From the IMG/VR virus record IMGVR_UViG_3300047320_000132, positions 67,101 to 131,100 of that record: a stretch of DNA of 64,000 bases; one strand, 5' to 3'. Below, piece after piece: positions 252 through 61,956 of the stretch (within the stretch, counting starts at the first letter, position 1; the number at the start of each line of letters is the position of its first letter). Source of the DNA: a virus (taxonomy: Duplodnaviria > Heunggongvirae > Uroviricota > Caudoviricetes). The translations under genes and the position numbers were made by a program. The notes under the pieces are model-generated. The model saw only the letters and a program-made list of their open reading frames with translations. It was not told where the DNA came from and made no database searches.

Positions 252-3227
252 ATGTTTGAAATAATTAAAAGTAGCGTTAACCTGCTTGAGCAAATAGCAA
301 ATGATACTCAACAGGCCATTGTGGAATGTGGTACGGATACATACAAATTTGAAGAAGATGAAGAAGTAGGTTGTTTCTTTTGTGGTCACAAGGGATGCCT
401 GAAGCTCTTCTATAAAGAAGACGAGCCAGAAAAAGCAGGCTACCATTGCTTCTCCTGTGAAGCTCATGGAGATGTGATCGGTTGGACGATTGAATTTGCA
501 AAGTCGAAGAATGAAGAGTTGAATGCTCGTGACGCATGTCTAAAACTTGCGAAAGAGCACGATATCAAACTCCCGTCTGGGTACAATCCGGTAGCGGAGA
601 TTTTCCAGTTGGCAGCAAACTATTACCAGACCTGTTTCTGGGAAGAGTGTAACAAGCCGTACATGGAGTTGGCTAAGCTTACCCCGTTGGAATATCAGAA
701 GACTGTTCGGGGCCATAGCGAAGAAGTCTTGAAGGGTGAGTGTGTAGGCTGGTCGGATGGTGGTGTTGTAGCGTATCTTGAAGCATTGGGTTTCGATGAA
801 GAAATCCTGGATGCGTCAGGATTGAGAAGTCAAAAGACTGGCCGAGATTTTCTCCCGTCCAGAGTGTTTATCTACCCTCACTATGTGAAAGGTAAGGTAT
901 CCCACTTTACATTTAAAGATCCTTTGAAGAAGCTTGCGTATCAGCTTCCTAACAAGTATTCGATGAATGGACATGAGTTCTGGGGTCAGGATACCGTCAA
1001 CAAGAGCGACACGGTTTATATCGTAGAAGGTGAAAACGATAGACTGAGTCTGCTTGATGTTGGTAAAACTGCAGTACTGGCGACCATCGGTCAAATCTCA
1101 GGCAGTCAAGCAGATTGGCTTCGTGAAAACCTGTCTGATAAACATATCGTCACATTCTTCGATAACGATAAAGCAGGCGGCAAGTATCGTGAGAAACTTG
1201 AGAAGATCCGTAAGTTCTTCAAGAGCCTGACTCAGGTTGTGCCTGGCGTTGAAGATGATGATATTGACAAGCTTATTCATGAAGGAGCAAACGTAGATGA
1301 AATTGTTGCGGCATGTAAAGCGGCAGACTCACAGAACGTTTCTATCGAGTCCGGGACTACGAAAGTACCATTCGATGTGGACGAAGCTCTTGAGAGAATG
1401 CGAACTGCAGACGGTGAAGCAGATTCAGGAAATCGAGGATCAGAGGTTTCTGGAAGAGATTCAGGTGATTCTGAACAAGATGTCGATATTGAAATCTTAC
1501 CGCCGGGAAAAGACCTCTCTCAAAATTCCGTCGTACAGAAGAAAGGTGCGTATTGGCGGGTAACGTTCAAGGATGGTGAACCTCAGTACAACAAGATCAG
1601 TGACTTTGTAATTGTCCTGAAGAACATCTACATTACAGAAGATGGAGATCGTCATCGTGAAGTTGTCATTATTCGAGAAGATGGGCAAAAGTCAAATCCA
1701 ATGCTCATCGATTCCGAAACGAAAGTTTCCCTTAAACCCTTTAGAACGCTCCTTGCACGAGCAGTGGATGCAGATTTCAAAGGGAACGAACGTGATATGT
1801 CAGGCGTATGGGACCTCGTTTACTCTCAGTCTGCGGAGACCCAAGTCCGTGTTACAAGAACTGTTGGTCGACATGAAGGCATGCGAGGCTGGATTTTTCG
1901 GAACAAGTTCATCTCCGACACAGGTGCCGTCATCGATCCTGATAAAGACGGAGTCTTTTGGTTGGCGGGAAAAACGGTTGGTATCAGACCAGAGTCCCTT
2001 AACGTTGCCTCGAATCAGCCTAGTACAAATGGGGACAACACCGGGAAAGTCGACATCCCTTTTATTGACCCAGATGTTTCAAGAGATGACGCAGATGAAC
2101 TGATGAAGGGTATTGTTGCTAATCTCAGTAAGAATCTGAATAGTCCAGGTCAAGCTTTGACGATTCTCGGGTGGATGTATGCGTGTATCTATTCAAATAC
2201 AATCTTCTCCTTGAACAAGAGTTTCCCATTCTTGTTTCTATGGGGGACCAAAGGTAAAGGTAAGACTTCGATTGCAAAGTGGGTTCAAGACTTTTATGAT
2301 ATGCGTGATTGTGGATACACCTCGGTTTCGCAGCTTCGATCAGCCGTCGGTTGGGGTCGTAAGGTCGAATACTATTCTTCGCTTCCAGTTTTCATTGACG
2401 AGATCCGAGCGGATAAAGAGACTGGTGAATATCTGAGTTTGTTCCGTAGTTATTTCGATCGGGCTCCGAGAACTATGGGTGTGAAAGACGGTTTCGGGGT
2501 TAAGACTCAAGAAGTCCGTTCGTGCTTTATCTTTGTTGGTGAAGACTTGTTTGATGATCCAGCAGCAAGAGAACGTTGTATCCCGGTTCGTATTCCGGTT
2601 AATAATCGAGAATTGACTGACTCGTATCGTTGGCTTGAAGACCATCGGCATCTGTTTAGCGGAATGACTTATCGCTGGATCCTGGAAGCAGCAGATGATG
2701 ATCGTGAAAAGCTTAAAGAGGAGATTCGTGAACTCGACAAAGAGCTTGTTCGAGAAGCAAAATGTTCTCAACGAGTCTCAAAGAACTGGGCAGCAATCGG
2801 AGTGTTCGCACAACGGCTTGCAGAGAAGTATCTTCCGGAGTTTGATTTCAAGAAGTATCTGTTCGAAGCATCGACTGAAGAAGCAAGCAATCAGAAGTCG
2901 GACACGACGGTCATGCAGTTTTTCGAACATGTAGAAGCAATGCAGGCAGGAGAGTTTCCGAAAATTACGCATCAACACATTATGGCGGATAGCAATCTTG
3001 TACATATCTGGTTTCCAGCCGTGTATAAAGCTGTGATTGATGATAGTCGTGGAAAGTTTCCATTCTCGAAAAATGCAGTTATCTCAGCGATCAGAGAAGA
3101 GCCTTACTTTGTCGCCGACGATAGAAAGGTGAAGATGGGATTGAACGGTGCTCGGAGAATCGTATTGACGTTGGATATGGATAAGGCTCCGGACGCAATT
3201 AAGAATATTGGGAATTACAATGATTAA
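252..3227 (+). CDS. DNA primase-helicase: zinc-binding primase, TOPRIM domain, C-terminal SF3/D5-like helicase
   Basis: 991 aa. Cys-rich zinc motif CFFCGHKGC...CFSCEAHG. TOPRIM motifs VYIVEGENDRLSL and FFDNDKAGGKYRE. Walker A LWGTKGKGKTS with downstream helicase motifs. Confidence 0.8.
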   Translation: MFEIIKSSVNLLEQIANDTQQAIVECGTDTYKFEEDEEVGCFFCGHKGCLKLFYKEDEPEKAGYHCFSCEAHGDVIGWTIEFAKSKNEELNARDACLKLAKEHDIKLPSGYNPVAEIFQLAANYYQTCFWEECNKPYMELAKLTPLEYQKTVRGHSEEVLKGECVGWSDGGVVAYLEALGFDEEILDASGLRSQKTGRDFLPSRVFIYPHYVKGKVSHFTFKDPLKKLAYQLPNKYSMNGHEFWGQDTVNKSDTVYIVEGENDRLSLLDVGKTAVLATIGQISGSQADWLRENLSDKHIVTFFDNDKAGGKYREKLEKIRKFFKSLTQVVPGVEDDDIDKLIHEGANVDEIVAACKAADSQNVSIESGTTKVPFDVDEALERMRTADGEADSGNRGSEVSGRDSGDSEQDVDIEILPPGKDLSQNSVVQKKGAYWRVTFKDGEPQYNKISDFVIVLKNIYITEDGDRHREVVIIREDGQKSNPMLIDSETKVSLKPFRTLLARAVDADFKGNERDMSGVWDLVYSQSAETQVRVTRTVGRHEGMRGWIFRNKFISDTGAVIDPDKDGVFWLAGKTVGIRPESLNVASNQPSTNGDNTGKVDIPFIDPDVSRDDADELMKGIVANLSKNLNSPGQALTILGWMYACIYSNTIFSLNKSFPFLFLWGTKGKGKTSIAKWVQDFYDMRDCGYTSVSQLRSAVGWGRKVEYYSSLPVFIDEIRADKETGEYLSLFRSYFDRAPRTMGVKDGFGVKTQEVRSCFIFVGEDLFDDPAARERCIPVRIPVNNRELTDSYRWLEDHRHLFSGMTYRWILEAADDDREKLKEEIRELDKELVREAKCSQRVSKNWAAIGVFAQRLAEKYLPEFDFKKYLFEASTEEASNQKSDTTVMQFFEHVEAMQAGEFPKITHQHIMADSNLVHIWFPAVYKAVIDDSRGKFPFSKNAVISAIREEPYFVADDRKVKMGLNGARRIVLTLDMDKAPDAIKNIGNYND

Positions 3228-3411
3228 TGAATCTCTGACTATCGCATTGTCTTTGTTGTTTATTGGAATGCCTGTTTTGATTTCAGTTGCGTACTTCAAA
3301 ATAGAAAAGAAGCCACATTCTAAAACGACAAGAAAGATGTGAAATAGTTGTTGACAGAAGGCTTTACTGATATTAAAGTAGAGTCTTCTAAACAACTTCT
3401 GTCAATCTAAA

Positions 3412-7101: not shown

Positions 7102-8361
7102 GTGGTAAAACTCGCCGACATGGCGCTAAACGACTTGTATGCAAAACCAAAGATTACAAGTACAGTAGAGGCAGTTATTCATGTTAAAGAGGATTTCAGT
7201 AAGATCAGCCCGACGTATTGTGAGAAGGTCTGTAAGCTGAAGTGCAAGCAATACGAATCTGTCTTTTTAGCCAAGAAAGAAGTAGACATTCTTATCATCC
7301 AGGATCATGCAGCACCGGACGGTAAGTGGGATAAGTTTGAAGGTCAGCAAGAAAAGCTGATGCAGGACATCATTTTCCATCTGTGTAAGGCAGCTGGGTT
7401 CGGGAACCTGACGTATCGTATGGTCGATCTGTTGAAGTGTTCTCCGACAGAAGCAGACTTTCCGAATGGGAAAGCTCCGACAGCAACAACGCTGATGAAG
7501 TGCAGACCCTATCTCTGGCAGGAGATTGAATCCTGTAAACCTAAGGTGATCATTAGTCTGGCAACTGCAGTGACTAAAGCGTTGGGTTACAAGAAACACA
7601 GTAATACAGGTAATCGTGGTGAGTACGTAGATAACGTCGTGATTACGATTCATCCAAGAGCACTGACGATGATTCGTCAAAACGCTTCAGGAGCCTTCTG
7701 GGGACAGGAATTGTATGGAGTGATCCTCCGTGACTTCAAGAAGGCAGCAGCGATGGTTAGAGGTGAGTTGAAGCCTCCGAAGTTGGAAGATGCTGTAAAG
7801 TTTTATCGTGAGAATAGAATTCGAGTAGCAGAGTCGATTGAAGATGTGAAGAAATACGTCGATACGGTCCAGAGTCTTCCTCCTAATTCGATCATAAGTT
7901 TTGATACGGAAACCACTTCGCTCGACGGTCTTTCTGAAGATGCTCGACTTTTAACTATCCAGTTCGGGTTTAGAGATCCCGTAGACAAAGAGGTAAAGGC
8001 AGTGGTTATTCCGTTATGGCACAGATGTAACACTGCTTATGATGCCGGTGAAGCCTGGGAACTTGTAAAACCGATTCTAGAAAGTGACCGCGCAAAATGT
8101 GGCCACAATTCGAAGTTCGATATTCTTTACATTTGGTTTACAACCGGGGTACGGGTTAAGAACGTAGCTTTTGACACCCTTCTCGTCCTTCATAGTCTTG
8201 ATAGTGGGGCGCAAGGAACCTTTGGTCTTAAAGCTGCAACGTGGGATATTGTGCCTTGGACAGGACTTGGTGGATACGAAAACAGTTTGCCCGCTCTAAC
8301 CAAGGCTAAGAATCTACCTAGCGAAGAAGAAGAGTCAGAAGAGGTTGAAAGTGAAGAATAG
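7102..8361 (+). CDS. DNA polymerase I-like (family A), N-terminal part: 3'-5' exonuclease domain
   Basis: 419 aa. Exo I motif FDTETTSLD. GTG start (ATG alternative at 7120). Acidic C-tail SEEEESEEVESEE, then a TAG stop. The polymerase domain is the separate gene at 8976. Confidence 0.8.
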   Translation: MVKLADMALNDLYAKPKITSTVEAVIHVKEDFSKISPTYCEKVCKLKCKQYESVFLAKKEVDILIIQDHAAPDGKWDKFEGQQEKLMQDIIFHLCKAAGFGNLTYRMVDLLKCSPTEADFPNGKAPTATTLMKCRPYLWQEIESCKPKVIISLATAVTKALGYKKHSNTGNRGEYVDNVVITIHPRALTMIRQNASGAFWGQELYGVILRDFKKAAAMVRGELKPPKLEDAVKFYRENRIRVAESIEDVKKYVDTVQSLPPNSIISFDTETTSLDGLSEDARLLTIQFGFRDPVDKEVKAVVIPLWHRCNTAYDAGEAWELVKPILESDRAKCGHNSKFDILYIWFTTGVRVKNVAFDTLLVLHSLDSGAQGTFGLKAATWDIVPWTGLGGYENSLPALTKAKNLPSEEEESEEVESEE

Positions 8362-13856: not shown

Positions 13857-15158
13857 ATGGCCGTACTTACTATCGGGTCTTCGAACCCCAAGTTTTCCTG
13901 GATCATTTCCAAGAACCCTGCAACGATTCGTGAAAGCGCAGAGCCCTACAAGAAATCGATCCGTCAAGGTATGGCGTATGGATGGTTCGGAGCCGATAAT
14001 CAGAGCTTTCGACTTTGGTTTAAAGACAGTCCTCAGAACTGTTCTTTTGCGGAGGGCATTGGCCAAGAGTTTGAATATCTTGACCGTACCCGTTACGCAT
14101 CTCCCTACTTGCCGATTTCGCTGATTACGAACTGTCTTGCTACAGCGTTCAAAACTGTTCAGGAAGAAGACGTTACTGAGCCGTGGAGCGCATATCTGGA
14201 AACTACGGTCGAAATTCGCAGCGCCAGCATGTTGAATCATCTGAATCAACACTTCAATGGTTCCTTCGGGTTGGACAATGGGTACAGCTTCGTAGCCGAG
14301 CATATTGCAGGCTGTGCGTACAAGGTCACTATCTCGGGACCTACCGTTCACGAAATGCTCAATGCGGCAATGGTAATTTTCCTGATGTTCTGCGTTTCGA
14401 CAAAGAGCATCTATGTCAACCTCAAGGGCGATATCGTTGAGAAGTACATTGCTGCGATCAATCGTATCAATGCACCGTACTTCATTCGTTACCTCTTCAA
14501 ACGGAATGTATTTTCAAATCGTGACACATTTCTTAAGAACAAATCGCTGCTTGATACGGACACGATCAACCTCTGGCACGGTGACACCCTTGCTCAGCGT
14601 AAAGAAGCTATCTTCCCCCACCTGGGAGGAGGAGCGACACTCGTTGACATTGGGTGCGGTGAACTCAATTACACGCTCCCACTCAGTTCGAAATATGAAC
14701 AGGTCCTTGCGTTTGAAGCGGATGACGAACTCCGCGAGAACATGCTTGAAAAACTCAAGGGACGAGAAGTCGAAAACGTTATTCTCCGAGATGCTGCAAC
14801 TCCCGAATCGATTGATGAGTGTTCCTTGCTCTTTAGCGGAGCAGACGTGCTCATCACAGAAGTTCTGGAGCACATTCCTCTTAAAGATGCAAAACAGCTT
14901 GTTGATGCCGTTCTGAAGACTGACTTTAACAAGTTGGTTATCACGGTTCCGAACAAGGCTTTCAATGTGAATTATCTGATGACAGAAGATCAGTTCCGTC
15001 ACGATGATCACAAGTGGGAAATGAATGAACAGGACTTCTACGATTGGTTCTGGAAAATCTCTAAGTCCCATGCAGTTTCAACTATCGGCCAAGGTATCGG
15101 CGATGCGGTAAATGGCGTTCACACTTCGACGATGCTTGTCGTAACGAAAAACAAGTAA
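13857..15158 (+). CDS. hen1: Hen1-like RNA 3'-terminal 2'-O-methyltransferase (partner of Pnkp)
   Basis: 433 aa. The C-terminal SAM methyltransferase motif I LVDIGCGELNY matches bacterial Hen1. The gene sits immediately upstream of the Pnkp-like gene. Confidence 0.7.
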   Translation: MAVLTIGSSNPKFSWIISKNPATIRESAEPYKKSIRQGMAYGWFGADNQSFRLWFKDSPQNCSFAEGIGQEFEYLDRTRYASPYLPISLITNCLATAFKTVQEEDVTEPWSAYLETTVEIRSASMLNHLNQHFNGSFGLDNGYSFVAEHIAGCAYKVTISGPTVHEMLNAAMVIFLMFCVSTKSIYVNLKGDIVEKYIAAINRINAPYFIRYLFKRNVFSNRDTFLKNKSLLDTDTINLWHGDTLAQRKEAIFPHLGGGATLVDIGCGELNYTLPLSSKYEQVLAFEADDELRENMLEKLKGREVENVILRDAATPESIDECSLLFSGADVLITEVLEHIPLKDAKQLVDAVLKTDFNKLVITVPNKAFNVNYLMTEDQFRHDDHKWEMNEQDFYDWFWKISKSHAVSTIGQGIGDAVNGVHTSTMLVVTKNK

Positions 15159-15167
15159 GGATCAACA

Positions 15168-17591
15168 ATGAAAATTCAAACTAAACTCCACACAGTCTTC
15201 ATTTTGGTTGGCCCTTCGATGTGCGGTAAAACCACATTCTCGAAACAGTTCGAACTTGTGTTGAACTTTCAGTTGATGAAAGCAGGACTTGCTGCAGGTT
15301 CGAAGGTTGTAAACTTGAATTCTGATGCTGAACGAATGAACGTCTTGGATGATTTGAGTCTCCATCGTTACGCTCCGGTCATGATGGAAGCTTCGGAAGC
15401 AGCTTTCAACGTGATGATGGCGAAGTTTAAAGCGGCAATTGCGTTCCCGATCAACAGTGAATTCGTAATCGTTGATACTACTGGTATGAACGATACGTTC
15501 CGAAAGGAAATTCGTAAACTCGCTGAAGAAAACGAATATCGTACTGAATTGATTACGTTTGAATATCCGAACTATCAGTACTGGTCGGAATCGAATGAGG
15601 AAGAAAAACGGGTTGTAGAATCGAGCGCCAAGCGATTCAAACAAAGCGTCCTTCCAAATCTCGGTCGTAAAGATCATGATGATTGTATTCGTATCCGTGA
15701 ACGAGACGCCAAAAAGTGGACAGATCTGGAAGTTGAAATCGAAGATTTGGGCAAGTACGCAGCTACTCAGCTCTATCTCGGTCGAGACATGCAGGTGAAT
15801 ATCATCGGAGATGTACATGAACACACGGAAGCTGCTGAACAGCTTGTAGCTAAGGTCGGTGCAAATAGCATCAATGTTCTTGTCGGTGATTACATTGACA
15901 AGGGTAATGACACTGCCAAAGCAATTGCCTTCGCCAGGAAGTTTCACACCGACGGCGGCATTATTGTCCACGGTAATCACGAATCGTATGCTGTGAAGCG
16001 TATCAAGGGTGAAATCAAAAACCCTGATCTGGAGATGGAATCGAAGTATATGAGTTCGCTTGACGTTCTGTTGAAAGACGAAACGTTGGCAGCAGAGCTT
16101 GTGGACTTGTTCGATCGCTGTTCTGTTCCGTTCTTGAAGATTCACGGCAACCAAGTCCGTACAGTTTACGTAACCCATGCTCCGTGCGAGCAGAAGTATT
16201 TGGGTAAGATGAGTTCTGCAGCACTTAAGGCTCAGCGCAATCTGTACGGTGATCGAAAAGAAGACTACCGGAAGGCTTATGAGTTTATTTTCAAGGAAGC
16301 TGTTGGGAATTTTCCTTTGCATGTGTTTGGGCACGTTGCTCACAATGCAGCCAAATTGGAACATCGTAACAAGGTGTTTCTCGATACTGGGGCTGTTTAT
16401 GGCGGCAAGCTTACTGCTTTCTGTTACAAAGGAAATCGTTACTGGTTTGATTCGGTTCAGGCAGCTGAAAAGGTAACGGTTCACAAGGGTCTTCAGAACT
16501 TCTTGACGACTCCGATAGCACCTCCGCAGAAGCCGTTCAATATCTACGACTACAAACTGTCGCCGGAAGATATGAGATTTCTGAAGCGTACTATCGCAAA
16601 CCGAGTTCAGTACATTTCAGGAACTATGGCCCCTGCCCCGTCGACTAACACTGAAATCGAAAGTCTTGAAGCTGGACTTGAGTATTTCAAAAGTCGTGGA
16701 ACGAAGCGGGTCATGCTTCAACCGAAGTACATGGGTTCACGTTGTCAGGCGTATCTATATCGTGGTAAGCCGGAAGAGTGTTTCCTGGTTTCCCGCAATG
16801 GCTTCAAGATTCGCATGACAGAAGACCTTACTGTTATGATTCAGGAACTGCTTGCTAAGTACGAAGGAGAAAGTATCGACTTCTGGCAAGAAGAACTGAT
16901 TCTTGATGGTGAACTTCTGCCGTGGACGACCCTTGGTAAAAGTCTGGTTGACGAACAGTTCCGTGCGTATGAAGGTTTGGTACGTTACGAACTGGATGCA
17001 TTGGCTAACGATGAGGAATTTGCCAAGTTGGGATTCAAGACAAAGGTCGACGTCGAAGCTCGTCAGACTGACTTGAAAGTGTTCAGCGAAACACTAGACA
17101 TCTATGCTCAGGAAGGCCGTCCAGAATACAGTGCATTCTCTATTCTGAAGGTTGACGGTAAGGTGTTTGGTGACAAATTCCAGATTGCAGATTCCTTTGA
17201 CTTGGTTAACCAGGACGACATCGTAATCATCGACCTTGAAAACGATAAAGAGGCTTTGGAAAATGCAAAGACTTTCTTCAACTGTAAAACCGTTGATGAA
17301 AAGATGGAAGGCCTTGTAATCAAGCCTCTTGACGGTACGGCAGATGTTGCACCGTATATGAAGGTTCGGAATGAAAATTACCTGACTCTTGTGTATGGCT
17401 ATGATTACAAGAACCGTTATGAAGCCCTGTGTCGTCAAAAACGTGTCGGCGGTAAGCTGAAGGTTTCTATCAAGGAACACGATCTTGCACTGGCAATGCT
17501 GACAGCAGACAATGGCCCTGCTCTGACTGAACTGGTTGTGAAAATGATCTCGCAACTGAATGAAGAAAAGACGCTGGATCCGCGTTTGTAA
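15168..17591 (+). CDS. pnkp: Polynucleotide kinase-phosphatase with ligase-like adenylyltransferase domain (bacterial Pnkp-type RNA repair enzyme)
   Basis: 807 aa. P-loop kinase ILVGPSMCGKTT. Metallophosphatase motifs GDVHE, GDYIDKGND, VHGNHES. C-terminal nucleotidyltransferase/ligase-like domain around QPKYMGSRC. Domain order matches Pnkp of the Pnkp-Hen1 RNA repair system. Confidence 0.8.
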   Translation: MKIQTKLHTVFILVGPSMCGKTTFSKQFELVLNFQLMKAGLAAGSKVVNLNSDAERMNVLDDLSLHRYAPVMMEASEAAFNVMMAKFKAAIAFPINSEFVIVDTTGMNDTFRKEIRKLAEENEYRTELITFEYPNYQYWSESNEEEKRVVESSAKRFKQSVLPNLGRKDHDDCIRIRERDAKKWTDLEVEIEDLGKYAATQLYLGRDMQVNIIGDVHEHTEAAEQLVAKVGANSINVLVGDYIDKGNDTAKAIAFARKFHTDGGIIVHGNHESYAVKRIKGEIKNPDLEMESKYMSSLDVLLKDETLAAELVDLFDRCSVPFLKIHGNQVRTVYVTHAPCEQKYLGKMSSAALKAQRNLYGDRKEDYRKAYEFIFKEAVGNFPLHVFGHVAHNAAKLEHRNKVFLDTGAVYGGKLTAFCYKGNRYWFDSVQAAEKVTVHKGLQNFLTTPIAPPQKPFNIYDYKLSPEDMRFLKRTIANRVQYISGTMAPAPSTNTEIESLEAGLEYFKSRGTKRVMLQPKYMGSRCQAYLYRGKPEECFLVSRNGFKIRMTEDLTVMIQELLAKYEGESIDFWQEELILDGELLPWTTLGKSLVDEQFRAYEGLVRYELDALANDEEFAKLGFKTKVDVEARQTDLKVFSETLDIYAQEGRPEYSAFSILKVDGKVFGDKFQIADSFDLVNQDDIVIIDLENDKEALENAKTFFNCKTVDEKMEGLVIKPLDGTADVAPYMKVRNENYLTLVYGYDYKNRYEALCRQKRVGGKLKVSIKEHDLALAMLTADNGPALTELVVKMISQLNEEKTLDPRL

Positions 17592-27179: not shown

Positions 27180-27362
27180 ATGTCTTCTAAAACAACGCAG
27201 TACAAGGACATGGTCCTGTCTACCAACACAGATCTTTTCAAAGCAGTTCAGGACGGTGAAACTGAAAAAGCTGCGCAGATGTACAAAGATCTGAACGACG
27301 CCTTCTATAAAGCTAACCCTGGGTGGAAGCCCTATCCTTCGAAGGTGAAACATGTCGCATAA
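27180..27362 (+). CDS. hypothetical small protein
   Basis: 61 aa from the internal Met. The upstream part of the track ORF overlaps tRNA-Tyr. Confidence 0.3.
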   Translation: MSSKTTQYKDMVLSTNTDLFKAVQDGETEKAAQMYKDLNDAFYKANPGWKPYPSKVKHVA

Positions 27363-27735
27363 ACAAGTTATCGTAATGCGCAAAGACCTTGGAATGCGCA
27401 AAGGGAAAATGATTGCTCAAGGTGCGCATGCAAGTCTTGCGGCGATTCTGAGTCAGATGCGAGAATACATCCACGACACTCTTGAGTTGCAGATGGATGA
27501 AAGAACCAAGCCTTGGCTCACAGGCAACTTCAAAAAAGTGTGTGTATATGTAAATTCCGAAGAGGAACTACTCGCACTCTATGCAAAGGCAAAAGCTTCT
27601 GGCATAATCACTGCATTGATTACAGACTCAGGTCTGACAGAATTTCACGGTGTCCCGACCAATACCTGCATCGCAGTTGGTCCGGATTTTGAAGATAAGA
27701 TAGATACGGTGACCGGTGGGTTGCCACTTCTATAG
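27352..27735 (+). CDS. pth2: Peptidyl-tRNA hydrolase, PTH2 family
   Basis: 127 aa. VIVMRKDLGMRKGKMIAQGAHAS...FKKVCVYVNSEEEL...ITDSGLTEFHGVPTNTCIAVGP matches the PTH2 signature along its whole length. Confidence 0.8.
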   Translation: MSHKQVIVMRKDLGMRKGKMIAQGAHASLAAILSQMREYIHDTLELQMDERTKPWLTGNFKKVCVYVNSEEELLALYAKAKASGIITALITDSGLTEFHGVPTNTCIAVGPDFEDKIDTVTGGLPLL

Positions 27736-27747
27736 AGGAAATGTATA

Positions 27748-28020
27748 ATGAGTTTTATCCAAACAGTTGAAGACGACGTTAAAGCAGTAGTCGCAAAGAT
27801 TGAAGGTCTGTTCCACAGCAAGACTGCTGAAGAGATCAAGACCGAGCTTGAAGCAGAGGTCAAGAAGATTCAAGACGCTGCTGAAGCAAAGATCGAAGCG
27901 CTTCGTGCAAAGATTCAGCCGAAGATTGACGCAAAGCTTGCCGAAATTAAAACGGATGTTGCAGCAGCAGTTTCGACAGCAGTTGCAGATGGCGTAAAGA
28001 GCGCAATCGAAAAGGCTTAA
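27748..28020 (+). CDS. hypothetical coiled-coil protein rich in Ala, Lys and Glu
   Basis: 90 aa of amphipathic helix repeats. Confidence 0.45.
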   Translation: MSFIQTVEDDVKAVVAKIEGLFHSKTAEEIKTELEAEVKKIQDAAEAKIEALRAKIQPKIDAKLAEIKTDVAAAVSTAVADGVKSAIEKA

Positions 28021-31324: not shown

Positions 31325-31424
31325 GCTGGCCTGAAGCTTTCGCAACAGTAGGATGCGCATTTGCGTTCGTAGCGTTTATCTGGATCTTGACACGCTAACT
31401 GTGTTTTATTAAACTAGCAGTATT

Positions 31425-31500
31425 GGGAATATAGCTCAGTTGGCAGAGCAGCGGATTCTAAATCTGAAGGTCTCGGGTTCGAGCCCCGATGTTCCTACCA
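31425..31500 (+). tRNA. tRNA with CUA anticodon (amber suppressor-type). Amino acid identity unresolved.
   Basis: A 76-nt canonical cloverleaf. Acceptor GGGAATA/TGTTCCT. D-arm GCTC-AGTTGGCA-GAGC. Anticodon stem GCGGA/TCTGA, loop TTCTAAA, so positions 34-36 are CTA. Short variable arm. T-arm TCGGG-TTCGAGC-CCCGA. A73. CCA encoded. Confidence 0.55.
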
Positions 31501-31614
31501 AACATTTAAAGGAATTACCATGAAGCTCGATAAGCTCTAGGTTACGAAGCCTCCGTAAGACAACCTTACCTAAAAGCACCGTAGTACCTACACTTTTACT
31601 TAAGGAAATTAATC

Positions 31615-31938
31615 ATGTCTTACATTTATTCAATCATTCGCAAAGATATTCCCCTCGCAGATCAGATCGTTCAGACTGCGCATTCCGCATTTCACGCTGG
31701 CCAAGCCGATCCGAAAAACGGTGCGGCATTAGATTGTGAAATCCCTTCGCTGGTCCTCTTGCAGGTGCCAAACGAAGAAGCCTTGCTTGAGCTTCACAAA
31801 AAACTTAAGGCTGCAGGCATCGTTCACAGCACGTTCCACGAGCCTGACGATGACATGGGTTGGACGTCGATCACGACCGTGTCTATTAATCAGGAAGATC
31901 GTAAGCTCTTTAGTAATTTGCCTTTGTGGAGACCCTAA
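31615..31938 (+). CDS. divergent PTH2-like peptidyl-tRNA hydrolase candidate
   Basis: 107 aa. The N-terminus IYSIIRKDIPLADQIVQTAHSAFHAG parallels the PTH2 motif (vvRxDLxMxxGKxaAQxxHA). The rest of the protein is divergent. Confidence 0.4.
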   Translation: MSYIYSIIRKDIPLADQIVQTAHSAFHAGQADPKNGAALDCEIPSLVLLQVPNEEALLELHKKLKAAGIVHSTFHEPDDDMGWTSITTVSINQEDRKLFSNLPLWRP

Positions 31939-32166
31939 ATGAACGATAGGATTCTTATCTTCTACAATAAGGCGCATAACACTGATACCTCAATACCGCC
32001 GTGGGTCTGCCAATCTAAAGGTCAGACATACAATGTTAATCATATTACAATCGGAAGTGGCATTGGCTTCTCGACCAAGGAGAGGCCCGACCACTCTAGT
32101 ACCAAGGCGTGTCTCGTTGTTAAAGGTACGTTGACGATCAAGGATGGTGAGGCGTTGATAAATTAA
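31939..32166 (+). CDS. hypothetical protein
   Basis: 75 aa. Confidence 0.3.
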   Translation: MNDRILIFYNKAHNTDTSIPPWVCQSKGQTYNVNHITIGSGIGFSTKERPDHSSTKACLVVKGTLTIKDGEALIN

Positions 32167-32212: not shown

Positions 32213-32758
32213 ATGAACTCTGACATACTTCAACCCTTGATAGATATGGGATTGACAGCCAAAGAAATGAGTGAACATCTTGGCTGTTCAATTCATAAAG
32301 TAAAGTACTACATGAAAAAACTGGGTATTAAAACCCAGCTTGCCCAAAAGTACGATTCATACGTTTCGTATGAACAATTAAAAACTAAAATTTGCCGCTC
32401 TTGCAAATTAGAAAAATCTGTTTTTGAATTTAGAAAAGTTGTTATATCTGGTAAAGAAAAACCCGGCTCTTATTGCAAAGCGTGTGTAAAGCAACAAAAC
32501 TATGCAGCTAAAAATAGTATTAAAAAACAGGCCTTAGATTATAAAGGTAATAAATGCCAGTGTTGCGGATACGACAAATATGAAGGCGCTTTAGAATTTC
32601 ATCATTTAGATCCTAAAGAAAAAGACTTTCTTATTTCTAGATACGGACGAGACGCTACTTTAAATGACAAAGATTTATTTACAGAATTAGATAAATGTGC
32701 TTTACTGTGTTCCAATTGTCACCGTGAGGTTCATGCAGGACTCATTAAACTAGATTGA
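32213..32758 (+). CDS. HNH homing endonuclease with N-terminal HTH, paralog of the gene at 41978
   Basis: 181 aa. GNKCQCCGYDKYEGALEFHHLDPKEKDF...LLCSNCHREVH is near-identical in its C-terminal half to the 41978 protein. Confidence 0.75.
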   Translation: MNSDILQPLIDMGLTAKEMSEHLGCSIHKVKYYMKKLGIKTQLAQKYDSYVSYEQLKTKICRSCKLEKSVFEFRKVVISGKEKPGSYCKACVKQQNYAAKNSIKKQALDYKGNKCQCCGYDKYEGALEFHHLDPKEKDFLISRYGRDATLNDKDLFTELDKCALLCSNCHREVHAGLIKLD

Positions 32759-32798: not shown

Positions 32799-32868
32799 AA
32801 CAAAATAGCTCAATTGGTAGAGCGCACATACTCTTGTGAGGCTGGGGGCTCGTATCCCCCTTTTGTTA
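32799..32868 (+). ncRNA. tRNA-like element (pseudo-tRNA?) with canonical acceptor and D-arm but a defective anticodon arm
   Basis: Acceptor AACAAAA/TTTTGTT. D-arm TA-GCTC-AATTGGTA-GAGC. T-arm GGGGG-CTCGTAT-CCCCC. The anticodon region does not form a standard 5-bp, 7-nt stem-loop. Lies 28 nt downstream of a TTGGTATAAG promoter. Confidence 0.35.
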
Positions 32869-44873: not shown

Positions 44874-44985
44874 CAAGTTTCAGTGCGGGTTTGGTATAGA
44901 TGAATGTGCAGCGGTTTTCCAAACCGACGAGACGAGTTTGATACTCGTAGCCCGCTCAAAGTATCTAAGGTAGAAAGTTCTTAGA

Positions 44986-48015: not shown

Positions 48016-49164
48016 ATGTCAATTATATCCCTTAAGCACGAAATCGTGCAGCAGTATGAAATCGTTTCTACGGAACGCAAACCCAAAGAGTTTGATCTTG
48101 CAGTAGTAATGGGTCGTTTTGAACCCTATCACGTTGGTCACCAGATTCTCGTCAACAAAGCACTTCTGATCGCAGATCGTGTTCTTGTATTGATCGGGTC
48201 TGCAAACGCCCCCCGCACTATCAAGAATCCCTTCACGTACGATGAACGTGCGACGATGATCGCTATGTCTCTTACGCAAGAAGAGATGGGTACCTTGCAC
48301 GACAGCAGATTCTTGACGGAAGCTCTTGTAGACAACATGTACTCTGACGATGACTGGGCAAAACAAGTCCAGGAAAAAATCTCCTACTGGACTCCGAAAT
48401 ATGATGCTTCAACTCCAGTTGAAAAACGTAAACCAATAAAGATCGCAATCGTCGGCAATAAAAAAGACGAGAGTTCGTATTATCTCGATCTATTTCCGCA
48501 ATACGACTACGTCCCGGTAGATGAAGTAAAACTTGGATTTGACGCTACGTCTATTCGTGAAATCATCTTCGAAAAGCCGGGGTTCATCGATCTGCTGAAA
48601 AGCCTAGTTCCTTCGTACACTTTCGACTTTCTGAAAGACTTTATCAAGTCTCCGGAATACTACCGTCTGTCTCGTGAATACCAGATGGTTAAGAAGTATA
48701 AGGAAGCCTGGTCAGTGGCCCCGTATGCACCTACGTTTGTTACCGTGGATGCAGTGGTGAAGAAAGCTGGACACGTTCTTTTAGTCAAGCGGAAGGCGGC
48801 TCCTGGAGAAGGACTCTGGGCATTGCCGGGTGGATTTGTAGAACAGAATGAGAGGCTCAGAGATGCGGCACTTCGTGAACTCAAAGAAGAAACAAGCATT
48901 GATCTGCCTTCTGGTCTTCTGCTTGGTAGTATGGGCGAAGGCGTTGTTTTTGACCATCCTAATCGCAGCTTGCGTGGGCGCACTTTTACCCATGCTTTCC
49001 TCTTTGATCTTGACCGGGCGGATAAGAAAGCTGGAATCCCCAAGACCAAAGCAGGAGACGACGCAGCAGATGCCAAGTTCTTCACGTACGACGAAACCCT
49101 GAAGATGGCAGATAAGGTCTACGAAGATCATCTTCCCATTATTCGCAAGCTGGTCGGTATCTGA
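48016..49164 (+). CDS. nadM: Bifunctional NMN adenylyltransferase / Nudix hydrolase (NadM-Nudix type)
   Basis: The N-terminal cytidylyltransferase motif MGRFEPYHVGHQ is an HxGH box. The C-terminal Nudix box is GGFVEQNERLRDAALRELKEETSI. Confidence 0.75.
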   Translation: MSIISLKHEIVQQYEIVSTERKPKEFDLAVVMGRFEPYHVGHQILVNKALLIADRVLVLIGSANAPRTIKNPFTYDERATMIAMSLTQEEMGTLHDSRFLTEALVDNMYSDDDWAKQVQEKISYWTPKYDASTPVEKRKPIKIAIVGNKKDESSYYLDLFPQYDYVPVDEVKLGFDATSIREIIFEKPGFIDLLKSLVPSYTFDFLKDFIKSPEYYRLSREYQMVKKYKEAWSVAPYAPTFVTVDAVVKKAGHVLLVKRKAAPGEGLWALPGGFVEQNERLRDAALRELKEETSIDLPSGLLLGSMGEGVVFDHPNRSLRGRTFTHAFLFDLDRADKKAGIPKTKAGDDAADAKFFTYDETLKMADKVYEDHLPIIRKLVGI

Positions 49165-49868
49165 TGAGCAACACCATTTCCGAAGAAGATTTGACCATAA
49201 AGAATCTAACCGCTAAGTACTACGTTTATTCTTTAAGGGCTGAAAATGAACACATGCCGTTTTATATCGGTATAACTGCTGTTAATCGTAGACGTTTTAA
49301 CGAACATATGTGCAGAGCTAATAAGGGAGACAGTAAACTTGTCTATACCAAAATTAGAAAATGTATAAATGAAAACGTTAGAATAATTCACGAAGTATTA
49401 TTAACTTCAGAGTCTCAGAGCGTAGCCCTTGAAATGGAAAAGTTTTTAATTCAGTCGTATGGTAGGCAGGATATTAAAACAGGTATCCTTAAAAATCATA
49501 CGGCTGGGGGAGACGGTGTACATGAGTATCGTCATACTGAAAAAGCCCGTGAGAAAATGAAACTGGCTAAGCTTGGCAATAAGTTAAACGTTGGGCGTAA
49601 ACGACCTGATGTTGTTGAAAAATGGAGTAAGCCTATTTCTATGTTTAATCACAAAGGCGAATTGGTTAACACATTTAATTCTGCAAGAGAAGCTTGGAAA
49701 GAGACGGGTATTCATTTTGGCGGTATTTCAGCCGTATTAAGTGGTAAGAATAAACGAGTCAAACAAAAACCAACAGGTGATTATTTTGTATTCAGATTTC
49801 GAGAAGAATCTTGTACAAGTATTGAGCCTTTTAAAAATCAAAAATCTGGTCGTAGCCCTAAGCAATAG
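49164..49868 (+). CDS. GIY-YIG homing endonuclease between nadM and nadV
   Basis: 234 aa. KYYVYSL...PFYIGIT is the GIY-YIG motif. C-terminal NUMOD-like repeats. Ends with TAG. Confidence 0.75.
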   Translation: MSNTISEEDLTIKNLTAKYYVYSLRAENEHMPFYIGITAVNRRRFNEHMCRANKGDSKLVYTKIRKCINENVRIIHEVLLTSESQSVALEMEKFLIQSYGRQDIKTGILKNHTAGGDGVHEYRHTEKAREKMKLAKLGNKLNVGRKRPDVVEKWSKPISMFNHKGELVNTFNSAREAWKETGIHFGGISAVLSGKNKRVKQKPTGDYFVFRFREESCTSIEPFKNQKSGRSPKQ

Positions 49869-59486: not shown

Positions 59487-59651
59487 ATGATGAATGAAGT
59501 TATTAGCGTTGCAGAGTACGAAGAAGGTTTTGCCTTGATCGAAGATTCTCAAGGCAAGTACATGGTTACAAAGGACAGCCCTGAGATCACTGAAATACAG
59601 TTTCCTCGGTGTTACCTCACAGATCGTGATCGTCAAGCCCTTCTGACGTAA
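59487..59651 (+). CDS. hypothetical small protein
   Basis: About 54 aa from the internal Met. Confidence 0.3.
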   Translation: MMNEVISVAEYEEGFALIEDSQGKYMVTKDSPEITEIQFPRCYLTDRDRQALLT

Positions 59652-60296
59652 CACAAGAACAAGTTGCATGCGGAAGTAAGGTCCGTTCTCCTGCCCGGAA
59701 TGAGCAACCTGGGTTACCTTGCAGAATTGCTTCCATGACTTAGTATTTTGTAACGACAACGTTACTAGAAGTTTGTAACAGGCTTCAAAGTTGTCTTCCG
59801 CCCAGCTTGCAGCTGGAGCGGAGACCCGAGATGTCTTCGCCGAGAAGAAGAACATCTTGTCCTTGGCCGCCGGCGCCGAAGGTTCCGGAGACGGGTATAG
59901 TAATACACATGAGTTAGTCGTGGTATAATCGTAGTAGAAGTAAAGCAGGGCTCTCGTAGCTCTGCTAAAGCAGAAGTTTGAAGTATCAAACTGTCATTGT
60001 GGAAGGCCATCTATTGGTTGAAAGCAACGGGACAGAGAGTATCTGTAACAGTGCTCTACGCTTCTCGCTACACAACGCGAAAAGCAAAATCTCTACCCAG
60101 CTGGTTGCTGGGTAAAGGCAAATTCTGGGACGTCGTCGAAGCAGGTCTTCTACCCTGGTAAAGGTACCTTTATCAGGCTGGAGCACGAGGCTTCGTAGCA
60201 GAATGAGTTCAAACTAAAAGAGCCGACGAATTTGGGTTACCGCCAAAATTGACTCCAAGTTCATAAACTTGCTCTTTCAATAAATTTCGTTTTAGT

Positions 60297-60306
60297 GGTA
60301 TAATGT
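60297..60306 (+). promoter_or_regulatory. GTGGTATAAT promoter motif inside the noncoding repeat region
   Basis: A consensus extended -10 with no ORF downstream for about 780 nt. Confidence 0.4.
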
Positions 60307-60420
60307 TTATGTAGAGCCGCATTTAACTAGGTTATCTATTGCTCAGAAACCTCCTAGTTATATTCTTTGTTCTACTTCCGCTTTAATCCTGAAGCAGTCG
60401 TCAATGACTGTTTTGGTATT

Positions 60421-61050
60421 AAAGTTCATGGGCCGTAGAAATGGATTATCTAATCCCAAATCGCAAGTCACAGGTTCGAGTCCTGTAACCCGCTGCAGTT
60501 GCGGGTTTAATTCAGTTGGCAGAATGGCGATTCCTGATTCTATTTCGATCTCTTGCCTATCTCAGTTTCACGAGCCGAATGTTCAAGGTTATCTACTAAG
60601 CCAAAGTTAGAATAAAGCGTATTACGCAGTTTCCGGAAACGGGATAGTACCTAGGTCTAACACCGTTGTACTCTGCTTGAGCTAAAGCTATCGCGGGTGA
60701 ATCCTGCATCTCCTTGACAATCCTTGCTCGTATCAAGTTTCACGACGAACCGAAAGCGTAGGGTTATCTACAAACTTCAATTGGTGAAAACTGTTAGGTC
60801 GAAAGACCATCTCCCTTGCACCACTTGTTCGTCTTCCGTTTATGCTGAACCGCTAGTATTGTGTTATCTCCATTATCAGGACGTATTTCAGGTTCGAATC
60901 CTGACGGCACAATTAAGAGCATTCTGTGTTCTTGGTTGTGCTGTAGTTAAACTGGTATAACGCGTAAAACGCGCAGTACACTCTTTGTTCAGCTTCAAGT
61001 TTGTGAGCCGTTCAGATTTGGATTATCCTTTTAAGATTTCCTCCAGATCA
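60421..61050 (+). repeat. five copies of an approximately 40-nt element AGTTTCAYGRGCCG...GGTTATCTAC carrying DnaA-box-like TTATCYACA cores. Two copies are followed by tRNA T-arm mimics.
   Basis: Copies begin near 60421, 60556, 60731, 60827 and 60981. GGTTCGAGTCC and GGTTCGAATCC stem-loops follow copies 1 and 4. Confidence 0.5.
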
Positions 61051-61079
61051 ATTTCATTTGCTCACTTCAGTTTTATACA

Positions 61080-61526: not shown

Positions 61527-61544
61527 CCTTTCGTATGTAACCAA

Positions 61545-61925: not shown

Positions 61926-61956
61926 AGTTAAACTTTGTTCCTCAAGGAGCCTTAAC

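Follow-up and report, generated by a model that had tools for sequence, protein, structure and literature searches.

The window analysed here is a stretch of 64,000 nucleotides (nt) of phage DNA (Duplodnaviria; Heunggongvirae; Uroviricota; Caudoviricetes), namely positions 67,101 to 131,100 of the IMG/VR record IMGVR_UViG_3300047320_000132. It carries, in this order, a promoter, a transfer RNA (tRNA) gene with the anticodon CUA, a very short open reading frame (ORF) interrupted by an in-frame TAG, a predicted RNA hairpin, and a gene for a small protein with the fold of the Pth2 peptidyl-tRNA hydrolases, followed by a further small ORF (Table 1). The DNA belongs to a large phage genome rich in tRNAs, and all credible genes of the window lie on the + strand. 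A preliminary description of this DNA singled out the tRNA and the mini-ORF, and doubted that the position of the latter was a coincidence. Comparison with relatives bears out that doubt, since the mini-ORF recurs as a leader with an anticodon-matching stop in all 13 loci compared, the stop being TGA where the tRNA has the anticodon UCA. We consider it probable that the tRNA, the leader ORF and the Pth2-fold gene constitute one translational switch, which is gated by read-through of the leader stop.

Table 1. Features of the switch locus in the window (SD, Shine-Dalgarno sequence; aa, amino acids)
Feature	Position	Strand	Basis or remark
Sigma-70-type promoter, TTGACA-N17-TAAACT	31387..31415	+	10/12 consensus positions; 5' of the tRNA
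Suppressor tRNA, anticodon CUA (31458-31460), encoded CCA, A73	31425..31500	+	ARAGORN; Rfam, 60.3 bits
Leader SD, AAAGGA	31508..31513	+	Read from the sequence; AAGGA/AAGGAG before the leader ATG in most relatives
Leader ORF, M-K-L-D-K-L-[TAG]-V-T-K-P-P-TAA	31520..31558	+	Kept in 13/13 clade loci
Predicted SD/AUG-sequestering hairpin	31555..31623	+	Single-sequence folds; covariance model
Hairpin, outer helix	31555-31562 (GUAAGACA) with 31616-31623 (UGUCUUAC)	+
Hairpin, anti-SD with SD	31564-31568 (CCUUA) with 31601-31605 (UAAGG)	+
Hairpin, apical helix	31571-31576 with 31593-31598	+
Gated gene, 107-aa Pth2-fold protein, divergent from canonical Pth2	31615..31938	+
Conserved 75-aa ORF abutting the stop of the gated gene	31939..32166	+	76-81 aa ORF directly after the gene in L003, L004, L134-L137 and L140

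The Suppressor tRNA Gene and Its Promoter

The preliminary description of a clean 76-nt cloverleaf with a CUA anticodon, U33 and A37 is confirmed by both ARAGORN, which places CTA at positions 34-36, and Rfam, in which the RF00005 score lies well above the gathering score of 29 bits and in the middle range of the other tRNAs of the window. The anticodon loop has 7 nt (TTCTAAA), and the molecule shows G18G19, a standard T-loop (GTTCGAGCC) and a 5-nt variable loop. A different anticodon register, for example TCT/Arg with a larger loop, had been named as a possible objection, and none was called by either program. ARAGORN labels suppressors of this kind ‘tRNA-Pyl’ or ‘tRNA-SeC’ because of the anticodon alone. 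A pyrrolysine tRNA has a short D-loop and a 3-nt variable loop, and in a selenocysteine tRNA the variable arm is long and the acceptor stem extended; both identities are ruled out by the canonical class I cloverleaf with its 8-nt D-loop and its variable loop. In the five relatives that were aligned, TTGACA and TTAAACTA do not vary, and no terminator-like site was found between the promoter and the downstream gene.

Orthologs of the tRNA are present in 12 related loci, with the anticodon CUA or UCA and with compensatory changes in the acceptor stem (GGGAACA/TGTTCTC, GAAAACG/CGTTTTC, CGAAGCA/TGCTTCG, CCCGAAT/ATTCGGG). These changes argue that the tRNAs are selected as tRNAs, and speak against the pseudogene that the preliminary description had entertained. 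The discriminator is A73 in all CUA members and G73 in four of the seven UCA members. A scan of IMG/VR for the scaffold of the suppressor, with a pattern that admitted YYA anticodons only, returned 107 loci (89 CCA, the Trp anticodon; 14 CTA; 4 TCA). The anticodon CCA is one step from both suppressor anticodons, which is suggestive; an ancestry or identity as tRNA-Trp is not claimed, given the YYA-only pattern, a tRNA-Trp in the window itself that is not especially similar, and a generic BLAST likeness to Ile, Met and Asn tRNAs.

The Leader ORF and Its Covariation with the Anticodon

The mini-ORF reads as it was first described, with an in-frame TAG that is followed by five codons and TAA (ATG AAG CTC GAT AAG CTC TAG GTT ACG AAG CCT CCG TAA). 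Its gating TAG lies at 31538-31540, its Pro-Pro codons at 31550-31555 and its terminal TAA at 31556-31558. A distance of 16 nt from the tRNA to the ribosome-binding site had been given, and this is corrected to 7 nt, the ATG lying 19 nt 3' of the tRNA CCA. In several single-sequence folds, the leader SD (AAGGA/AAGGAG) pairs with the CCUCC of the Pro-Pro codons (31550-31554).

No close DNA relative of the region was found by Megablast against INPHARED, and relatives were found via their proteins, by protein-guided searches of IMG/VR, JGI metagenomes and a protein-cluster collection. Twelve further distinct loci of the same phage clade were recovered, all of which have a suppressor-type tRNA at the syntenic place behind the TTGACA-N17-TAAACT promoter. 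In each of these 13 leader-type loci the internal stop of the leader matches the local anticodon, being TAG with CUA in six loci and TGA with UCA in seven (Table 2). The functional tie between the TAG of the mini-ORF and the CUA tRNA, as proposed at the outset, thus has comparative support. The terminal stop of the leader is never cognate to the local tRNA, and exactly five sense codons, ending in Pro-Pro, lie between the two stops in every locus.

Table 2. Gating stops in leaders and inside Pth2-fold genes
Locus	Anticodon	Reading frame around the gating stop
Leader type
Window	CUA	MKLDKL-TAG-VTKPP-TAA
L003/L005/L016 (L003 given)	CUA	MKLNKL-TAG-VTKPP-TAA
L004	CUA	MKPNKL-TAG-VTKPP-TAA
L017	CUA	MTL-TAG-ISKPP-TAA
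L018	CUA	MKLNKL-TAG-VTKPP-TAA
L135	CUA	MKPYQ-TAG-VEKPP-TAA
L002	UCA	MKKQKLYEL-TGA-VIEPP-TAA
L013/L014	UCA	MKFKHDKMYER-TGA-VIVPP-TAG
L015	UCA	MNYKSEKLFER-TGA-VIVPP-TAG
L134	UCA	MNFKHDKMYEL-TGA-VIVPP-TAG
L136	UCA	MNYKSEKMYER-TGA-VLVPP-TAG
L137	UCA	MNHKSEKMYER-TGA-VIVPP-TAA
L140	UCA	MNYKSEKMYER-TGA-VLVPP-TAG
Stop inside the gene
L020/L047	CUA	MHKL-TAG-ISKPQKTYLYTISRRDL
L025	CUA	MNS-TAG-TFNQEKLRVVTRRDL
L100	CUA	MKK-TAG-IENVQNPKLVIITRKDI
L102	CUA	MK-TAG-ISSTEKLRVVTRRDL
L028	UCA	MK-TGA-VNNQNQYVYIITRNDL
GAP32		MAQ-TAG-NEKTWIYVFVR
fHe-Yen9-04		MSH-TAG-IDKTWIYVFVR
RsoM2USA		ML-TAG-ISDKTYSYCFIR
ME3		MT-TAG-IHENKKHTYVFVR
XbC2		MAH-TAG-NEK...
Arash		ML-TAG-NKH...
Chloroflexota example	CUA	MPEL-TAG-LPAWYAYVLVRADIPLADQ

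The mini-ORF lies 56–65 nt 5' of one conserved gene (MSYIYSIIRKDIPLADQIVQTAHSAFHAG...) in every locus, and 56 nt from it in the window. In L003, L004 and L017, the leader is 60–65 nt from the Pth2-fold gene and the tRNA is 181–468 nt away, with one or two ORFs between; since the spacing to the gene is kept there despite the distant tRNA, the leader belongs to the downstream gene and not to the tRNA. In four leader-type loci the tRNA and the leader are 20 nt or less apart. ORFs resembling homing endonucleases are present or absent from locus to locus, hence the variable distance between tRNA and leader among the relatives.

When the anticodon is masked, the CUA tRNA of the window is nearest to the UCA tRNAs of L002 and L013 (82% identity), and its gated protein is nearest to those of the UCA loci L013 (84%) and L134 (82%). 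Likewise, the CUA tRNA of L135, with a CCCGA-type acceptor stem, is nearest to the UCA tRNAs of L015 and L137. Both acceptor-stem lineages, GGGAA-type and CCCGA-type, therefore hold CUA and UCA members. From these sequence comparisons we infer at least two, and probably three, independent co-switches of anticodon and stop. A purine directly after a stop codon favours suppression, and the base 3' of the gating stop is a purine in 27 of the 27 tabulated cases, a tabulation from which five Chloroflexota metagenome-assembled genomes (MAGs) are left out.

The Hairpin over the Downstream Start

The leader runs into a predicted hairpin that would sequester the SD and AUG of the Pth2-fold gene. The 5' strand of its outer helix begins with the third base of the second Pro codon, takes in the terminal TAA and ends four bases later; the 3' strand comprises the UG of the start codon together with the two codons that follow it. 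The same architecture was seen in the folds of most leader-type sequences taken singly (eight loci and L135). A covariance model (R1) was built from four sequences, and its pairs were then counted explicitly. The model gives one strong + strand match per locus in 11 of the 13 loci, and its sole match in the 64-kilobase (kb) window is the site of Table 1. In the resulting alignment, 95.5% of the cells are paired, compared with 34–56% when the partners are slid by 1–3 columns; six pairs (12 cells) are changed on both sides, and in 500 shuffles neither the pairing score nor the covariation score was ever as high as observed.

The 5' arm also compensates in blocks for the start of its own gene, the pairs of strands being GUAAGACA/UGUCUUAC, GACAUG/CAUGUC, CAUGA/UCAUG and GUAAACGUA/UACGUUUAC. 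Downstream of the terminal stop, the bases vary in step with the first codons of each gene (GACA for AUGUCUUAC; AACGUA for AUGUACGUUUAC in L135), and the anti-SD tracks the SD among the loci (CCUUA/UAAGG versus CUCUUU/AAAGAG). This block compensation appears in independent single-sequence folds and is, as a prediction, hard to dismiss.

The position of the two stops relative to the hairpin is suggestive as well. Between the gating stop and the hairpin base there are 14 nt; the terminal stop is itself part of the 5' arm. The footprint of a bacterial ribosome extends about 12–15 nt downstream of the first P-site base. When the A site holds the gating TAG, the P-site codon begins at 31535 and coverage would extend to about 31547-31550, short of the hairpin base at 31555. 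When it holds the terminal TAA, the P site is 31553-31555 and coverage would extend to about 31565-31568, enough to take up the entire outer 5' arm and the greater part of the anti-SD. A spacing of five codons, which is invariant, agrees with this estimated geometry of a ribosome on the hairpin. In addition, Pro-Pro-stop is a context of slow termination, as known from the Pro-stop of TnaC and from SsrA tagging at C-terminal prolines.

The Gated Protein and the ORF behind It

The protein encoded behind the hairpin scores 22.4 bits against the Pfam family PTH2 (PF01981), below the cut-off of 23, and 17.2 bits against the NCBIfam model arch_pth2 (TIGR00283), for which the cut-off is 82. In PHROGs it falls into families of unknown function. 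We found 47 homologs, the identical protein (P0001) being encoded on a 131-kb contig, and an AlphaFold2 model based on 39 homologs has a predicted local distance difference test (pLDDT) of 87.7 and a predicted template modelling score (pTM) of 0.79. All 15 significant Foldseek matches of this model in the PDB (E <= 0.001) are members of the Pth2 family, namely proteins such as AF2095, MJ0051, PH1539, human Bit1/PTRH2, TA0108, S. solfataricus Pth2 and Atu0240, mostly with template modelling (TM) scores of 0.70–0.77, a probability of 1.0 and an identity of 14–22%. On this model, the gated protein has the Pth2 alpha/beta fold.

A profile alignment to the sequences of solved Pth2 structures shows that the GKGK loop is deleted (iRkDiplA--Dqivq versus IRNDLGMGKGKMVAQ). 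D16, Q17, Q20, H23, E76, P77, D78 and W105 are invariant in the family, and of these D16, Q17, Q20, H23, E76, P77 and D78 may form a putative site of its own. Because of the deleted loop and its own invariant residues, the family is regarded as a distinct Pth2-fold family. It shares with Pth2 (PF01981; PTRH2/Bit1) the fold, as seen in the comparison with the structures 3erj, 2zv3, 1wn2, 1q7s and 1xty, and the N-terminal motif R-x-D-[IL]...Q-x-x-H-[AS] and the acidic motif before strand 4 are still recognisable; it differs in its low identity of 15–22%, in scores below the Pfam and NCBIfam cut-offs, and in the absence of the GKGK loop insertion.

A canonical Pth2 (PF01981, 113.6 bits) is encoded as well, at 27352-27735 of the window, inside the tRNA cluster, and this gene is ungated. 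Canonical Pth2 is likewise present in the phages GAP32 (GAP32_382) and RaK2 (PMC3622015). The conserved ORF that abuts the stop of the gated gene has no Pfam or PHROG match, and is a possible operon partner of the gated gene.

The Same Gate inside the Gene: Distant Phages, Cultured Phages and Chloroflexota

In more distant loci (28–37% protein identity), the cognate stop stands in frame at codon 3–5 of the gene itself (Table 2). L138 and L139 are also of this direct type, with TAG and CUA. The prophage-like L139 is intermediate, as it has an in-frame TAG at codon 3 and its read-through region is predicted to fold into a strong hairpin (z = -5.8), which would hide an internal SD. In L053, a negative control, there is no early stop, and only a Trp tRNA was seen. 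No counter-example to the match of gate and anticodon was found among the cases in which both tRNA and gene were seen. In the DNA that was fetched, a homolog of the gated protein is present at 10 of 18 suppressor-tRNA loci versus 1 of 89 Trp-tRNA loci (Fisher p = 1.3e-8). The locus L012 (jumbo-phage contig IMGVR_UViG_3300029922_000001, 441 kb) holds at 3001-3291 a homolog with a TAG in mid-gene (..EHDLL*VAQRLE..), no early gate, and no tRNA within 3 kb; the sequence suggests that this genome is genuinely TAG-recoded, and it was left out of the gate tally on account of this possible recoding.

Several cultured phages carry the direct form of the gate. The suppressors of these phages were taken from the annotations of their records and from papers. 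A CUA suppressor is annotated as Sup-tRNA in GAP32, with the anticodon assigned by ARAGORN, and as tRNA-Sup-CTA in the record of fHe-Yen9-04; that of ME3 was confirmed, and those of RsoM2USA (PMC8504454) and XacN1 (PMC5852040) are published. BLAST with the suppressors of ME3 and GAP32 across cultured phages returned near-identical copies and CBB only, in which a homolog of the GAP32 tRNA is annotated ‘tRNA-Pyl’. In XacN1, ORF364 is preceded in frame by ATG AAG TAG ACC ATT AAA GCG ATG behind an SD. The tRNA is 3 kb from the gene in GAP32 and fHe-Yen9-04, and the XacN1 tRNAs are in the terminal repeats, far from the gene. The RaK2 homolog, a further negative control, has no early stop, and the genome paper of that phage lists no suppressor tRNA (PMC3622015); the enzyme therefore has a role that does not require the suppressor.

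The Pth2-fold gene is absent from the records LT960551 (fHe-Yen9-04, ~289.1 kb) and MG752970 (RsoM2USA, ~69.2 kb), clearly truncated in JN882285 (GAP32, ~290.1 kb), OP292654 (XbC2) and OQ632216 (Arash), and begun after the gate in KU935715 (ME3) and AP018399 (XacN1 ORF364). It was missed, truncated or mis-started in these records because of the in-frame TAG at codon 3–4 after the true start, and the PHROG phrog_34073, a 77-residue profile, probably derives from such truncated calls.

The gate is also found in bacteria. A single scan of species-representative genomes gave five loci, all in Chloroflexota MAGs, with TAG at codon 5 and a tRNA-CUA about 600 nt upstream. The cassette (L138, L145-L149) consists of the tRNA-CUA, a conserved ORF of about 150 aa and the TAG-gated Pth2-fold gene, and it occurs in MAGs of Anaerolineae, Thermoflexales and Chloroflexia, with chromosomal neighbours that are unrelated between loci. 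The middle ORF is 55–58% identical among L138, L145 and L148 and has no family match; no mutual relationship was detectable between it, the fused N-terminal domain of XacN1 and the neighbouring ORFs of the window. The cassette resembles an amber suppressor that sits in a bacterial chromosome together with a gated partner of its own, and since it lies in Chloroflexota chromosomes, the phenomenon is not restricted to phages.

Genetic Code and Other Read-Through Targets

The code of the window is the standard one. Under code 11, 83 + strand genes were called with a crude model of codon usage, their stops being TAA (47), TGA (31) and TAG (5), in agreement with the earlier view that the genome is not wholesale recoded. 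The two genes cited for that view do end in TAG, at 7102-8361 (uracil-DNA glycosylase and 3'-5' exonuclease domains) and at 49164-49868 (a homing endonuclease in PHROGs, with a weak GIY-YIG match). Stop-to-stop ORFs of at least 100 codons cover 0.72–0.91 of each locus, mean ORF length is no higher with TAG or TGA as sense, and no gated locus looks recoded. A phage with recoded stops (code 15 or 4), which is characterised by many interrupted genes and a low coding density under code 11, is thus ruled out.

The census of TAG-ended genes that had been proposed was carried out for the window, and it gave one same-frame TAG junction in the 64 kb, between the canonical Pth2 gene (27352-27735) and 27748-28020, a 90-aa coiled-coil-like protein that follows in frame four sense codons after the TAG. 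The stop of canonical Pth2 is also TAG in the UCA-type L002 and is TAA in the CUA-type L003 and L004, and so it was rejected as a cognate target; L003 and L004 are without a second gene of this type. As it does not covary with the anticodon, this TAG provides a negative control within the window itself. Apart from the leader, the window gave no convincing target of read-through. The initial suggestion that the tRNA drives read-through of selected sites, or else acts as a timing device for many genes, therefore has support in its first part, on account of the leader stop that covaries with the anticodon, and none here in its second.

Stop usage was compared across the whole window and L002-L004, L015-L017 and L134-L140. 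In CUA-type loci, TAG ends 10 of 182 genes (5.5%) and TGA 54 (30%); in UCA-type loci, TAG ends 11 of 78 (14%) and TGA 15 (19%), a shift with a chi-square p of ~0.03 from crude gene calls and small, partly redundant samples. This suggests that the cognate stop is partly depleted and that the tRNA is felt genome-wide. Since both stops are still in use, suppression would have to be partial or temporally restricted.

The Proposed Switch and Its Alternatives

The switch may work as follows. Transcription of the CUA suppressor would start at a strong promoter of its own, and the transcript would probably run on through the leader and the gene; ribosomes would initiate on the leader ORF. If a release factor acts at the UAG in codon 7, the ribosome would leave about 14 nt short of the hairpin, which would stay closed and pair the SD and AUG, so that the Pth2-fold gene is off. 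If the UAG is instead read by the charged suppressor, five more codons would be translated and the ribosome would come to the Pro-Pro-UAA in the 5' arm, where it would cover the outer helix and most of the anti-SD, its stay probably being prolonged by slow termination. The SD and AUG would thereby be freed and the Pth2-fold protein made. The five-codon extension is thus not of interest as a protein product; it would carry the ribosome into the hairpin. As the SD and AUG would be freed only on suppression, the output of Pth2-fold protein would report the activity of the suppressor tRNA. The wiring is simpler in the distant phages and the Chloroflexota, where suppression would lead straight into the gene.

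As to the purpose of such a device, our leading guess is that the protein acts on tRNA-linked substrates and that its level must track the activity of the suppressor or of the phage tRNAs. By analogy with the autoregulation of release factor 2 (RF2), the device may be a homeostat, with a negative feedback of the enzyme on the suppressor or on what the suppressor produces; alternatively, it may be a delay gate that withholds a tRNA-directed hydrolase until the phage tRNAs are functional. A broader proposal, which we offer tentatively and would rather doubt than assert, is that the suppressors of standard-code phages and of some Chloroflexota are not general decoders, but one half of a portable module of tRNA and gate codon that controls a tRNA-acting Pth2-fold enzyme; the latter would deacylate or release the suppressor, or attack host aminoacyl- or peptidyl-tRNAs once the phage tRNAs work.

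Several points weigh against the switch or limit its details. Read-through, the opening of the hairpin by the ribosome, stalling at Pro-Pro-stop and the direction of regulation are all deduced from sequence alone. The suppressor of the window has a G1-U72 wobble and a G27-A43 mismatch, which bear on its efficiency, and some leaders (L015, L017) are without an obvious SD. The loci are related by descent, so that the 30-odd matches of gate and anticodon are not 30 independent events. As to the hairpin, the minimum-free-energy folds of L137 and L140 retain the SD helix only, the covariance model missed these same two loci, and RNAalifold on plain MAFFT alignments of the leader-to-gene region returned no consensus structure, which is attributed to arms that are out of register. 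Many of the hairpin pairs are invariant across loci, and since the covariance-model alignment is fitted to the model, its pair counts lean towards structure. The invariant CCU CC(G/A) of the Pro-Pro codons may also be an anti-SD for the leader itself, as an alternative at the RNA level to Pro-Pro stalling or in addition to it. Finally, the name hydrolase is unproven for the gated protein, because of its sub-threshold PTH2 score and the lack of the GKGK-loop residues.

Other explanations of the locus have to be set beside the switch. The tRNA may be a general suppressor that reads through or recodes many phage or host genes, for instance as a timer of late genes, with the leader as a minor target. 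Suppressor tRNAs of recoded phages do behave in this way (bioRxiv 10.1101/2021.08.26.457843), and the depletion of the cognate stop (p ~0.03 with crude calls), together with the TAG-ended canonical Pth2 that is in frame with the next gene, would be in keeping with it. However, the window and its relatives retain the standard code with a mean ORF length that does not rise when TAG or TGA is read as sense, the sole TAG-split pair does not covary with the anticodon, UCA-type relatives still end ~19% of their genes in TGA, and the authors of XacN1 saw no extended homology after any of its 18 amber stops (PMC5852040). General suppression also leaves unexplained why a matching stop stands at codon 3–7 of one gene family in every lineage, and we regard it as unlikely. 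Read-through is set by competition between tRNA and release factor, so that the device should respond to both, and the early in-frame UGA of prfB serves as a sensor of this kind; the stop could accordingly measure RF1, RF2 or ribosome traffic, with the tRNA being merely permissive. Against such a sensor of release factors or translational status, the gate flips between UAG (RF1) and UGA (RF2) among close relatives, always following the tRNA, which is unlike what a sensor for a single release factor should do, and RaK2, with no reported suppressor, has lost the gate or never had it, which makes this reading less likely still.

The 6-codon ORF could instead be a minigene like lambda bar. Very short ORFs promote the drop-off of peptidyl-tRNA, with a toxicity that is relieved by Pth, and a neighbour with a Pth2 fold that recycles tRNAs would suit such an ORF well, the stop doing no more than shortening it. 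The match of stop and anticodon, the five conserved codons and the second stop within the SD/AUG hairpin would then be left without explanation, and the direct architecture has no separate minigene at all, so that the minigene appears very improbable. A short ORF with an internal stop often arises by chance, the loci share ancestry, and the proximity of tRNA and leader in four leader-type loci might indicate nothing but joint inheritance. Chance or hitch-hiking is nevertheless scarcely credible, as the match is kept across one or two genes (L003, L004, L017), across 3 kb (GAP32, fHe-Yen9-04) and across placement in terminal repeats (XacN1), as each of at least two independent anticodon switches came with a matching stop switch, as the gate is seen in two architectures and with hosts from two domains, and as conservation extends to the reading frame, the five-codon spacing and the hairpin. 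The switch gated by read-through accommodates these observations best.

Further Features of the Window

By ARAGORN the window has 22 tRNAs, or 24 with those found by Rfam only. It encodes a family A DNA polymerase, a ribonucleotide reductase, the RNA repair proteins Hen1 and Pnkp, NAD salvage enzymes and Ro60. The Hen1 gene (13857-15158; match to the N-terminal domain) adjoins that of Pnkp (15168-17591; kinase, phosphatase and ligase domains), and the two make up a pair for RNA repair of the bacterial type, presumably acting on cleaved tRNAs. With this pair, its 24 tRNAs, two Pth2-fold proteins and Ro60, the window is unusually rich in functions of RNA and translation maintenance.

One of the tRNA-like elements, at 32799-32868, scores 49.5 bits in Rfam and was not called by ARAGORN in the window; its counterparts in L003 (9748-9820), L015, L016 and L017 are called ‘tRNA-???’ and given an anticodon of 2 nt. 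The acceptor stem of the element is made of A and U only, the anticodon loop has 6 nt, and the element is conserved a short way upstream of a long-arm tRNA-Met; its T-arm GGGGGCTCGTATCCCCC plus TTTT also scores as an intrinsic terminator. The second Rfam-only tRNA (44885-44956; 37.9 bits, no ARAGORN call) lies between tRNA-Trp and tRNA-Arg. Genes resembling homing endonucleases are found among the tRNA and metabolic genes, at 32213-32758 (weak HNH) and at 49164-49868, the latter with atypically low codon-usage scores. The Ro60/TROVE protein (TROVE and Ro60 vWA domains) is encoded at 61957-63579, and the ~2.3 kb 5' of it (59651-61957) have little coding potential. Matches to the Y RNA-like YrlA at 60462-60530 (28 bits) and 60886-60961 (23 bits) are below the gathering score of 69, and the region 59651-63579 may be a phage Ro60/Y-RNA module.

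Comparison with Known Systems

Orphan suppressor tRNAs have been recorded in standard-code jumbo phages (XacN1, RsoM2USA, Atu_ph07, GAP32, fHe-Yen9-04, ME3), which resemble the window in their tRNA and in their tRNA-rich genomes. All of these phages have the gated Pth2-fold gene except Atu_ph07, in whose genome no match to the gated protein family was found. Published accounts of such suppressors give no target or suggest many genes (PMC5852040, PMC8504454, PMC6102473), and the authors of XacN1 state explicitly that they found no target (PMC5852040). In the literature searched, which was not exhaustive, there is no description of a suppressor tRNA coupled to this gene or to a peptidyl-tRNA hydrolase. 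The target was overlooked so far because a gate at codon 3–7 makes gene callers truncate the gene, skip it or start after it. Orphan suppressor tRNAs thus gain a target that is specific, conserved and testable, in culturable carriers such as Cronobacter/GAP32, Acinetobacter/ME3, Salmonella/Arash, Ralstonia/RsoM2USA and Xanthomonas/XacN1, and phage tRNA arrays become linked to a second, uncharacterised Pth2-fold family. If the switch is real, it would be a natural orthogonal pair of tRNA and codon for gating expression, of interest for synthetic biology, and on the broader proposal above, co-switching between UAG and UGA without loss of function would make it a natural orthogonal genetic switch.

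With the recoded phages (codes 15 and 4; Lak, crAss-like, Jade, Agate), the system shares a phage CUA or UCA tRNA that allows translation through stops. Theirs serves many genes, often late or lysis genes, with many stops, whereas here the code is standard and a single 5' gate is placed on one family; no release factor or aminoacyl-tRNA synthetase that would form a code-change module was seen among the window proteins scanned.

The prfB gene of RF2 is similar in that an early in-frame stop senses the balance of termination and decoding and sets a translation-related output, and in this it resembles the direct architecture. It differs in that prfB uses a +1 frameshift with an internal SD and a slippery CUU, and the gate described here would use suppression in the 0 frame by a dedicated tRNA; furthermore, the sensor of the window is a separate ORF that would be coupled to the gene through RNA structure. 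A frameshift of the prfB type was rejected for the present loci, as the leader extension and the genes of the direct architecture continue in the 0 frame.

In layout, the system is like the leader attenuation of erm and cat genes (ermC/ermB, cat, cmlA), with a short 5' ORF, an SD/AUG-sequestering hairpin that overlaps the leader, and a proposed opening by a held ribosome. The window has the corresponding parts, namely a 12-codon frame with its own SD, lying 5' of the gene, conserved in the 13 loci and predicted to be translated, and a hairpin over the SD and AUG with the terminal stop of the leader within its 5' arm; that a ribosome pause in the leader opens the hairpin would follow by extension from these parts. 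With tnaC it shares a proline adjoining the stop as a putative stalling feature. It differs from erm and cat in its inducer, which would be a trans-acting suppressor tRNA encoded by the element itself instead of an antibiotic or an amino acid, and in its decision, which would be taken between termination and read-through at an internal stop whose codon covaries with the anticodon. The system would represent a known principle, the control of a gene by a leader peptide or by read-through, with a new input, namely an element-encoded tRNA whose anticodon co-evolves with the gating codon.

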